Shown: piece by piece, positions 6,901 through 9,900 of the stretch | How the letters are laid out: the number at the start of each line of letters is the position of its first letter | Numbering within the stretch: the first letter of the stretch is position 1 | Origin: Chrysomallon squamiferum | Taxonomy: Eukaryota > Animalia > Mollusca | Length of the DNA: 64,000 bases | Assembly: GCA_012295275.1 (NCBI GenBank) | Contig: CM022674.1 | Coordinates: 6,696,001-6,760,000, forward strand | Reading direction: 5' to 3' | Notes under the pieces: generated by a model | The model's database searches: none | What the model was told of the DNA's origin: nothing | The model's input: the letters and a program-made list of their open reading frames with translations, nothing else | Made by a program: the position numbers and the translations under genes

Positions 6901-9900
6901 TATATTTTATGTAGTAGGACACATGGTCAGATATGGGATTATCCTTATATCTCAATGGAGTTACGGTAGTAGATTCATTCTTGTTTCATAATTTAAAAAA
7001 AAATAAAACATCCCAAAAACAGTATGATTTTTTTATTTAATAACAATACAAAATATGAAGATATCAACTTAGGCCGTTTTTTGTGTCAGTTAGGAGTGTT
7101 ACATCATTTATATTTTATTCACTGCCAAAATGTTGTTATAGATTATAATCAGGTTTTTTAAGAATTTCTTCTTCTTTTTGTTTTTCTCCACATTTAAAAA
7201 ACTTGTTAATAGTAAAAGTGTTTTTGTGTGTTGTGTGTGTAGGGGAGAGATTTTCGTGGACAGGTGTTAAAAGTAAATCTCTGCTTTGCTAACTGACACT
7301 GTGTATGTCATTAATTCTGCCCTACTTAACATTGTTTATATTTTTTAATTTTTAAATTGACTTCTCTTTATACTAATGTCTTAACTTTATAGATAGCAAA
7401 ATTCTCTTTTAAAATGTTCTGGCCTAGTTTTTAAAAGACTTTTCCACAAACACAAACACACACAAAAATTGAAATTTTCTGTTGATTTCTCAGATGCTAC
7501 AAGAAAACAACATTCGCTGCTCTGTGATTGGACTGGCAGCAGAAGTACGAGTCTGCAAAATTCTCTGTCAAATAACTCATGGTGAGCATTAAAAATGTAA
7601 TAATCTTCAGTAATTGTCACTGTATGTAAACTACTCCCATGTTATCTCCGTTCTCTGCTGAATTGGCAACAGCTCCAGGAATATCGCATTTCAGTCTCAG
7701 GTCCAGATACATTAAAAATAATGCCATCTTTATTTTGCTACCATAATTACTAAATAATATTGAGGTTCATTAAATTAATACTAATTAGTAATCCTTTGCA
7801 TATTTTGATCTGTTCTAGAATTAAATAAATTGATGAAAGAATAATAAAACAGTGTTTCAGTGTAAATACTTTTTTTATTTGTAAATGGATCAAACAGGAT
7901 CAAACAGTACAATAATTTAGGATCCATAAAAACTGCACCAAGCATTACTGAAAATAGCACAAGAAACTAATTATAATTTATAACAATTTATAATTTAATT
8001 TATAGATACACAGCATACATTTATAATGTTTCTAATATAATGTATTATTGGGCTGGTATCAAGAATAAGCCTTTATTAATCATTATTCTTTTATATTAAT
8101 ATTAATATTATTAATAATTAGTGATAATAATAATAATATTAATAATTTAATAAATAATAAAACAAACAACAATAATAACAATTAAACACAAACAAGGATA
8201 AAACAACATCAACACAACAAAACAGAAGCCTGTAACATCAAGCATCATTCAAATCTGTTGAGTTCACAAAAATCCAGACACATTGCTTTTGCTATAACAA
8301 TGACTTCGTGGTTGCTGTGAATGTCATCATCTGGCATCTCTTCGCTCTGCTGACCGAGGTTGTCCATGATGATGTGCACAAGAGTCTGGATCTGCTGCCA
8401 CTTGCGACATCTGTAGACGATGTACATCTCCTTCACCGCTTTTATCACCCCAGTCCTCTGCATTATCTGCATGCCACCAATGATGCGACCTGACGGAGCC
8501 TGGGAAGTGACGTTGCCTGTTAGACGATGGAGCAAGACGTCTGGAAGAAAAAACACTGACGTTTTAAATATCTGTTTTATTTTAAATAATGTATGTCTTC
8601 ATTTTTTTTTCTTATTTTTTTTTTATTTTTATAAAATATAAATATTTTTACATTTTAATGAAGTAAATGATCTGAAAATAAAACTATTTAATTATAAGCT
8701 GAAATTTGGACAAGTTATTTCACTAAAATATTTGGTAATCATAATAATATTAAATACAGTAATAATTATAATAAATAATGAAATCTTTAAAATAATAGTG
8801 ATAGAAATAAGAAAAAACAAGAGTAATAAGAGTAATGAAAAACTGTAGAAGAACTTCAAATCATAGAGAAAAGACCAAATTAGAAAATTCTCAAGACTTA
8901 CCAAGAGACTGAATTTCAAGCTGGGCTTTGTCATGTGAAATGAGAAGATTTCTCAATTCTTGGGCAGCGGAGACTGTATCCATGGTAACTGTAGTTGTGT
9001 ACAAAAATTACTCGAAACCTGTAGCACTGTACAGAAATATATCGTCACACAAGAAGTATTTCAAAAAATATTTCAGACTGTTATTCTTCTTGAAATATTC
9101 CAACAAGTTTACTTCAGTATTGCAGAACTCTACAGAAATATCTTCACTGAATTTGGATTTACAAATATGTCTCAGAAGATGTGTTGATGCTGAGTGTCAG
9201 TTATCAAGTGCTGGAATCCATTATTGTTGGGCTTATTTATATAAATTACTATAAAAACAGATAAAATTAGATTCCTTTTGCTTCTTTCATCTCTGAATAC
9301 AAGATTAACTATCAAATAGAAACGATAATCTTGATCTCATTTGATCTTTTCTGTTTTATTTTTTACCTTCACACATCAAAGTGTTTGTATTTAGGCCTCC
9401 CTCTTTGATGCAGGTGTATTCCTAATTAGTACTAATTAATTGATAATGATAATTAACTGTGCCTTATCTGAGGTCAGATAATCCACTTTGATGTGTTAAT
9501 CTGGTTAATCTCAGGTGAACAGTGCTGAGTTAATTAGTGTTCTGAATAAGCATCACTAATTAAAATGTGTTGATCCAGTTATGTATGGCCTCTTTAGTTA
9601 GGAAGCATGGATTTCTTCTGTGTCTTGTGTTTCTTAGATCAGTTTTAACTGATTTTAAATATTTTTTTTAATTTAAGATAGCAAATGTGTTAATTAACTA
9701 CATGACTTCAGCTTTTCCACTGACTTTACTTTCTTTTCTTCTTTCTTTCTTTGTTCTTATTGCTATTTATTTTTATTTTTTATTAATTTCATTACCTTAC
9801 ATTATATTTTATTTTACTTTACTTTACTTAACTTTATTTTAATTTATCTTACTTTAGTTTGCTTTACTTTACTTTACTTTACTTTACTTTACTTTACTTT

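Follow-up and report, generated by a model that had tools for sequence, protein, structure and literature searches.

A spliced gene nested antisense in GTF2H2 intron 7 belongs to an abalone-type protein family and carries, like a distant relative, three TCF-type sites before its predicted promoter

It is common for introns to harbour antisense genes, and short multi-copy Wnt targets are known as a kind. In the available part of a preprint on Xenopus, the earliest zygotic genes are described as short, intron-poor and clustered, with beta-catenin starting nodal3/5/6 and siamois (bioRxiv 10.1101/488056). The sequence CTTTGAT is the Tcf/Lef site that was mutated in the Xvent (Vent) promoters of Xenopus, and the same excerpt also shows putative Tcf/Lef sites without Wnt control (PMC3033397). 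According to the accessible sections of a review, only some of the sites in a cluster are in use, and helper sites adjoin the HMG sites in direct beta-catenin/TCF targets (PMC9285942).

The gene described here lies in one copy, on the minus strand, in the window, that is, the whole 64,000-nt stretch of Chrysomallon squamiferum DNA that was analysed (table 1). The initial annotation had proposed a spliced antisense protein-coding gene within intron 7 of GTF2H2, and this proposal is supported by the intact 125-aa frame and by homology to abalone proteins. The gene itself thus stands as first read, but its abalone family and its triplet of TCF-type sites had been missed. The gene is almost certainly real and a member of the abalone family.

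In detail, exons 8983–8902 and 8540–8245 are joined into a coding sequence of 378 nt (125 aa) with one stop. The signals first read from the letters are all in place: the ACC-ATG-G at 8983, the donor GTAAGT after TTG at 8901, the pyrimidine-rich CAG acceptor at 8541, the stop (TGA) at 8245 and the AATAAA at 8077–8072. The GC content of the exons is 43% and 48%, whereas the intron of 361 nt has 19% and the 3′UTR 17%, and by codon position the coding sequence shows values of 0.55/0.30/0.55. Both coding variants listed when the sequencing runs were compared (2/2) are synonymous. The protein end encoded by exon 2 reads C-x3-R-x-x-stop.

Table 1. Features of the nested gene, its upstream region and its host intron (positions in the window)
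Feature	Position	Strand	Basis and remarks
GTF2H2 intron 7, host intron	7582..10089	+	2508 nt; Pfam, exon chain, RNA junction
3′UTR	8008..8244	-	AATAAA at 8077-8072; RNA cover to 8008
Exon 2, coding part	8245..8540	-	Long conserved helix, short acidic linker, C-terminal helix; partial RNA cover
Phase-1 intron	8541..8901	-	361 nt, 19% GC; same position and phase in L001
Coding exon 1	8902..8983	-	ATG at 8983; 27 codons + one base; phase-1 donor at 8901
5′UTR, likely	8984..9212	-	Inferred; 229 nt, no ATG (4.15 expected, P ~0.016)
Predicted core promoter	9205..9243	-	TATA-like box from 9243; candidate start site near 9212
TCF/LEF-type site 1 (CTTTGATG)	9374..9381	-	Motif match
TCF/LEF-type site 2 (CTTTGATG)	9403..9410	+	Motif match
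TCF/LEF-type site 3 (CTTTGATG)	9486..9493	+	Motif match
Motif cluster beside TCF-type sites	9411..9562		5 TAATTA, 3 TAATC, 2 CAGGTG, several GATA-type words

RNA contigs fall on the gene in two of the three RNA runs. Those of run X1 cover 8008–8081 and 8200–8439, and that of run X2 covers 8274–8529 in exon 2; the contigs do not give the strand. Their depth over the gene is low (2.1–2.6), and contig depth cannot rank genes. Run X4 has no RNA cover of the gene and the DNA run X3 shows a gap over exon 2, neither of which is proof of absence. Beyond the last exon of the nested gene, the rest of intron 7 is free of RNA pieces of at least 70 nt among those listed. The AATAAA is present as claimed, but since the X1 contig reaches 8008, 64 nt further, it may be neither the sole nor the used signal.

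The junction 8902/8540, which had been named as a check, has no spanning RNA contig in X1, X2 or X4, and to this extent the copy could be taken for a recent pseudogene or a chance frame. That reading has next to no probability, given that the frame, the splice sites and the promoter motifs are all intact, and given a 72% identical relative ending at the same stop, the synonymous variants and the RNA over exon 2.

The initial searches for homologues used exon 2 alone as the query. A word-index search returned one relative (P0003, 72% identical), and HMMER against 1.84 billion representatives returned seven proteins at E ≤ 0.001, among them an uncharacterized protein of 158 aa from Haliotis asinina (P0007). 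Although exon 1 was not in the query, exon 1 with the junction residue matches the N-terminus of P0007 without gaps at 15 of 28 positions. Out of 127,834 six-frame 27-mers of the window compared with the first 27 residues of P0007, exon 1 is the best (score 63, the next being 25), and its score was reached by 0 of 100,000 shuffles. In five unspliced gene calls the similarity to P0007 stops at the exon 1/exon 2 junction. Over the window, the related locus L001 (see below) and two Haliotis proteins, 12 of the 27 exon-1 residues are invariant. The clade of the window protein is joined to that of the abalone type by a profile match with a probability of 98.3 (E 1.2e-14).

The 158-aa proteins of Haliotis (XP_067669883.1, XP_046555117.1, XP_046338274.1, XP_071085753.1) are colinear with the window protein, gaplessly over residues 1–88 and again over their last 20 residues, and share with it the invariant residues and an Arg at position –3. 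They differ in the acidic linker, which has 47 residues in Haliotis and 14 in the window protein, and in number, the abalone copies being many and near-identical and the window gene single and nested. At least 19 XP accessions were counted in H. asinina, at least 9 in H. rubra and at least 13 in each of H. rufescens and H. cracherodii, and the aligned rows are 87–99% alike. The accession numbers are close and mostly share one contig size per species; from these numbers and sizes, as distinct from coordinates, we infer tandem arrays. Amplification is not universal, as the single copy of the window shows.

A tree of 11 family rows is mostly unresolved (one of seven inner branches starred), and no conclusion here draws on it. 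P0005, in the cluster of P0003, extends 16 residues beyond the conserved C-terminal motif and represents either a stop-loss allele or an assembly error. No longer or fused form of the family was found among 7,996 candidates of 278–2000 aa, which is weak evidence. RefSeq already lists the abalone relatives, each as an uncharacterized protein; their union in one family with a common gene structure and a fixed C-terminal motif is new. Titles and abstracts gave no literature on the family, including the Haliotis LOC identifiers, and supplementary expression tables may list these genes.

The locus L001, of about 2.3 kb and from another organism, is the only related locus found with the abalone-type alignment; the alignment of the close relatives returned no related DNA from metagenome or viral contigs. 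In its gene, exon 1 occupies 704–785 and ends after residue 27 in a phase-1 donor, exon 2 starts at 1145, and the intron of 359 nt agrees in position and phase with that of the window gene. Mismatches between the two genes over the first 88 codons are distributed 46/27/57 by codon position. The first 87 nt of L001 return at its end, 2230 nt away, in a copy that is 90% identical. Blocks of its flanks (148–345, 1794–2174, 2231–2317) recur on either side of the gene, spaced by about 290, 1735 and 2230 nt, which suggests an array with a complex duplication history. A second candidate, L002 of Paenibacillus, had a 25-residue match (E 5e-4) with stops nearby and was rejected as chance.

Three CTTTGAT sites of the TCF/LEF type stand upstream of the TATA-like box of the window gene. 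Their longer form, CTTTGATG, occurs seven times in the 64-kb window and three of these occurrences are within 120 nt, a clustering that arose anywhere in the window in 76 of 200,000 random placements. Only two 8-mers made of all four letters occur thrice in 130 nt in the 64 kb when tandem repeats are excluded, and CTTTGATG is one of them. The other non-repeat triplet, ATCCGAAA, is found three times in mixed orientation at 48278–48345 and is possibly a regulatory cluster. Among the 600-nt tiles of the window, 1 of 106 has at least two CTTTGAT, and the 600 nt upstream of the GTF2H2 ATG have none.

The triplet of the window had been recognised before the sequence of L001 was examined. L001 also carries CTTTGAT three times, at 526, 548 and 560. 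By shuffling, a triplet was obtained in 2 of 20,000 cases for L001 (500 nt upstream) and in 31 of 20,000 for the window (600 nt). CTTTGAT is the sole 7-mer that occurs at least twice in both upstream regions, and a look-elsewhere control gave any shared triplet 7-mer in 67 of 5,000 shuffles. The two upstream regions have otherwise no alignable stretch. Clustered TCF/LEF HMG-type sites are thus conserved between homologues (n = 2 loci), and the triplet before the promoter, present in both loci for which there is DNA (n = 2), is new.

In L001 the triplet is followed at 602 by a TATA-like box and at 633 by TCAGTT, an initiator-like word some 70 nt ahead of the ATG. The core-promoter call in the window rests on this parallel, because TATA-like words are frequent there (499 matches). 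A start near 9212 with a 229-nt leader is likely, and the single upstream ATG (9221) would then fall outside the leader. The initial annotation had considered an intron in the 5′UTR (9366–9249). Its GT and AG are present, but its use is unsupported and the proposed acceptor is followed at once, on its 3′ side, by the TATA-like box; as a start near 9212 gives an ATG-free leader of 229 nt, such an intron is unnecessary.

The stretch next to the TCF-type sites is crowded with other motif words, of which TAATTA and TAATC are of the homeodomain type and several others of the GATA type. The cluster at 9411–9562 is not matched as a cluster in L001. A perfect 16-nt palindrome with two TAATTA words (9423–9438) lies between TCF-type sites 2 and 3 and is possibly a homeodomain dimer site.

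Three TCF-type sites precede the predicted promoter in the window gene and again in a distant relative, which makes Wnt/beta-catenin control of the family likely. Judged from the site triplets at the two loci, TCF probably binds the triplet and drives the nested gene.

The host gene is GTF2H2 by its Pfam domains Ssl1 and C1_4, and its chain of 13 exons with GT/AG borders gives an open frame of 392 aa. Four of its splice junctions are seen in RNA contigs, including that of intron 7 (in X1 and X4). Intron 7 had been called the longest of the gene and is so by a wide margin, with 2508 nt compared with 244–728 nt in the other 11. The surroundings of the host were also noted. A minus-strand gene at 859–2990 is divergent from GTF2H2 with about 900 nt between the starts; its frame at 2562–2990 has no Pfam match and reads like the N-terminus of what we take to be OPA1. 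Convergent with GTF2H2 on the minus strand is a gene of a ubiquitin-specific protease (about 17500–29300, UCH match at 28895–29308), presumably USP48, whose frame at 22579–22926 enters a long Thr-encoding microsatellite. On the plus strand, 51307–53178 is an open frame of 624 codons (44% GC), rich in Pro, Gln and Tyr and then charged, with no Pfam match. Minisatellites are found at 25730–26185 and 18000–18400 with units of about 27 nt and 23–24 nt, respectively, and TRF assigns 16,443 of the 64,000 nt of the window to tandem repeats.

In its 2.3 kb, L001 has no GTF2H2 exon; one 25-residue match (E 0.049) falls on the 3′ end of the nested-type gene itself. The nesting in GTF2H2 is therefore probably not ancestral, as far as these two loci tell, and it looks like a lineage-specific relocation of the whole cassette. 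The antisense position in the longest host intron would suit a transcript that mainly interferes head-on with GTF2H2, or TCF-type sites that serve as an intronic enhancer of the host. Yet the gene and its triplet are retained in L001 where the host exon is absent, and the conservation of the protein shows that selection acts on the product, which leaves these two options extremely improbable. Head-on interference in particular is unlikely to be what the gene is for, because in L001 it stands between repeated flanks and its 2.3 kb include no exon of GTF2H2.

The window copy is likely to have entered intron 7 as a piece of DNA that kept its promoter and its intron, and not by retroposition, because the intron and the promoter motifs would have travelled along. 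Intron 7 shows no conspicuous terminal repeats, a point which bears on whether the cassette is a passenger or a part of a mobile or selfish repeat, so that the arrays and the jump into an intron would reflect mobility and not host function. The settings do differ in the way such an element would produce: a nested single copy in the window, repeated flanks in L001, many copies in abalone. On the other hand, neither the exons nor the full-length P0007 have Pfam matches to mobile elements, no viral contig or viral fold matched, and the intron, the C-terminus and promoter sites of the host type are kept at about 30–40% protein identity. A mobile origin of the pattern is accordingly very improbable.

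That the protein could be assigned to no family agrees with the Pfam searches, in which exon 1, exon 2 and full-length P0007 had no match and the other family members only sub-threshold matches on acidic tracts. NCBIfam gave none for P0007 and single weak matches for two rows, and Rfam gave 0 matches over 7400–10300. Among PDB sequences, exon 2 hit only IL-6 receptor beta (E 1.7–5.9) and the family profile had 0 matches at E ≤ 10; the ESM Atlas had no usable match for exon 2 or P0007.

Models were folded for full-length P0007 and for exon 2 as stand-ins for the spliced 125-aa protein. The P0007 model has helices at 3–41, 50–90 and 136–157 with a disordered acidic linker (pLDDT 63.6, pTM 0.33), and the exon 2 model has helices at 18–63 and 73–93 (pLDDT 71.7, pTM 0.40). 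The two agree with the small all-helical protein that had been proposed, as far as predicted helices go, but they disagree on the pairing of the helices, and their confidence is middling. Foldseek found no match at E ≤ 0.001 in PDB or among viral models. The best Z scores of VIA (9.4 and 7.7 for the two models) belong to generic hairpins, and families not listed are not thereby excluded. A homodimer prediction for P0007 with the alignment unused scored 0.05 against a mark of 0.32, which is no evidence either way. In helix 2, R56, E65, Y70, K74, W75 and I85 are invariant and hydrophobic columns are dense. The linker of the family varies from 14 to 57 residues with 26–49% Asp/Glu, the highest 19-residue hydropathy is 0.98, and the protein shows neither a catalytic set nor a signal peptide or membrane segment.

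A loose resemblance to the N-terminal domain of TFIIS, raised from the window sequence, did not hold within the family. The TFIIS N-terminal (LW/Med26) domain is all-helical, as is predicted here, and the window protein has a TG-x-x-KAV stretch. However, the TG pair is confined to the window protein and the 71% relative P0004 (two of eight rows, one clade), the position being RW, RC or LC in the six other clusters, and both models predict the segment inside one long helix of 40–45 residues. The domain is a compact bundle of short helices, and the models, at moderate confidence, have long ones. There is no Pfam or PDB sequence match, and the domain is not listed in the fold searches.

The same features bear on a reading in which the protein would have diverged from a subunit of a chromatin or transcription complex, or would serve as a decoy of one, being either TFIIS-N-like or with a hairpin like those of EAF6 and the ING N-terminus in MYST acetyltransferases. 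The hairpin presumably resembles the N-termini of EAF6 and ING, the linker is acidic, and a 113-residue NuA4 chain (7vvz_V), which we take to be Eaf6, aligns end to end (Z 8.2, rmsd 3.0, 91 residues). This chain is, however, at rank 31 of the 50 rows shown, among generic hairpins, with 9% identity and a best Z of 9.4 above it. With full-length P0007 having no Pfam match, the family profile finding 0 PDB sequences at E ≤ 10 and the TG pair not conserved, membership of such a complex is improbable.

A helical, non-enzymatic adaptor is instead favoured, with some reserve. Helices 1 and 2 (about 3–41 and 50–90) would form a hairpin, or a three-helix bundle with the C-terminal helix. The invariant R56, E65, Y70, K74 and W75 would form a binding face, and a partner may be contacted through helix 2 and the C-terminal helix. 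Because there is no catalytic signature and the gene is amplified, the protein likely acts by its amount, and it would do so by titrating a partner, for which a nuclear or Wnt-pathway protein is our guess.

The C-terminus may set the lifetime of the protein. An Arg at –3 is found in 36 of 37 family proteins (mostly near-identical abalone copies) and in all eight distinct clusters, with the last two residues variable; the exception is P0005. In the part of the source available, an R-3 C-degron is recognised by CUL4-TRPC4AP, and its substrates have, as the family does, an Arg fixed at –3 before variable last residues (PMC7458402). Unlike in those substrates, the Arg of the family ends a conserved 20-residue helix with near-invariant Cys and Leu, and this end may be a binding motif instead of a degron. 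By analogy, the Arg could tentatively be seen as an R-3 C-degron, or as some other motif at the free C-terminus that shortens the lifetime when bound, through which the protein would be cleared.

Taken as a whole, the reading is of a family gene driven by beta-catenin/TCF and encoding a short-lived, non-enzymatic helical adaptor, probably in early embryos, and we give this sum of parts an even chance. Nuclear beta-catenin, together with TCF, would occupy the triplet and switch on a gene of 1.2 kb with one intron, and the abalone arrays would supply high output, as in the early gene clusters of Xenopus. The traits of early zygotic genes are distributed as follows: one short intron-poor gene, single in the window; many accessions in abalone; repeated flanks in L001. 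The short gene, the single intron and the multi-copy arrays fit an early zygotic burst, which on this analogy is conceivable though somewhat short of an even prospect.

The RNA over exon 2 comes from metatranscriptome libraries of unstated tissue and, if these libraries are adult, no other result weighs as much against a role confined to the embryo. Activity as a TCF/HMG-box target in adult tissue or the germ line (stem cells, gut, gill, gonad), with the abalone amplification reflecting a lineage-specific need, would account for RNA contigs in two of three RNA runs of unstated tissue and for the single copy in the window, and the promoter triplet fits it equally well. Against it, the RNA depth is low (with the limit on ranking given above), and the short length, one intron, TATA-like promoter and arrays match the earliest zygotic genes as the accessible preprint text describes them (bioRxiv 10.1101/488056). 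Such adult or germ-line use is unlikely, though to be reckoned with, beside the embryonic role.

An orphan gene thereby becomes a candidate, open to test, among direct targets of Wnt/beta-catenin in molluscs, on which the literature search found no paper, and also a candidate for a compact natural Wnt reporter. If it is a dosage-amplified embryonic regulator, it would be a new type of effector. A wider proposal, which is doubtful, is that molluscs have immediate beta-catenin/TCF targets of their own, short genes that some lineages have amplified in tandem and that fire when the zygotic genome is activated, whose self-destructing helical protein, outside all catalogued families, titrates a developmental regulator. 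If true, these genes would give a direct read-out of the sites of beta-catenin signalling in spiral-cleaving embryos.

The closest described systems are the nodal3/5/6 and siamois1/2 clusters of Xenopus, presented in the available preprint text as short, intron-poor, multi-copy genes under nuclear beta-catenin, to which the family is likened in regulation (bioRxiv 10.1101/488056). In that text nodal and siamois encode a TGF-beta ligand and a homeodomain protein; the nested protein has neither domain, so the likeness is one of the genes alone. If the wider proposal holds, the family would be a spiralian counterpart of the siamois and nodal clusters of Xenopus, built from an unrelated protein.
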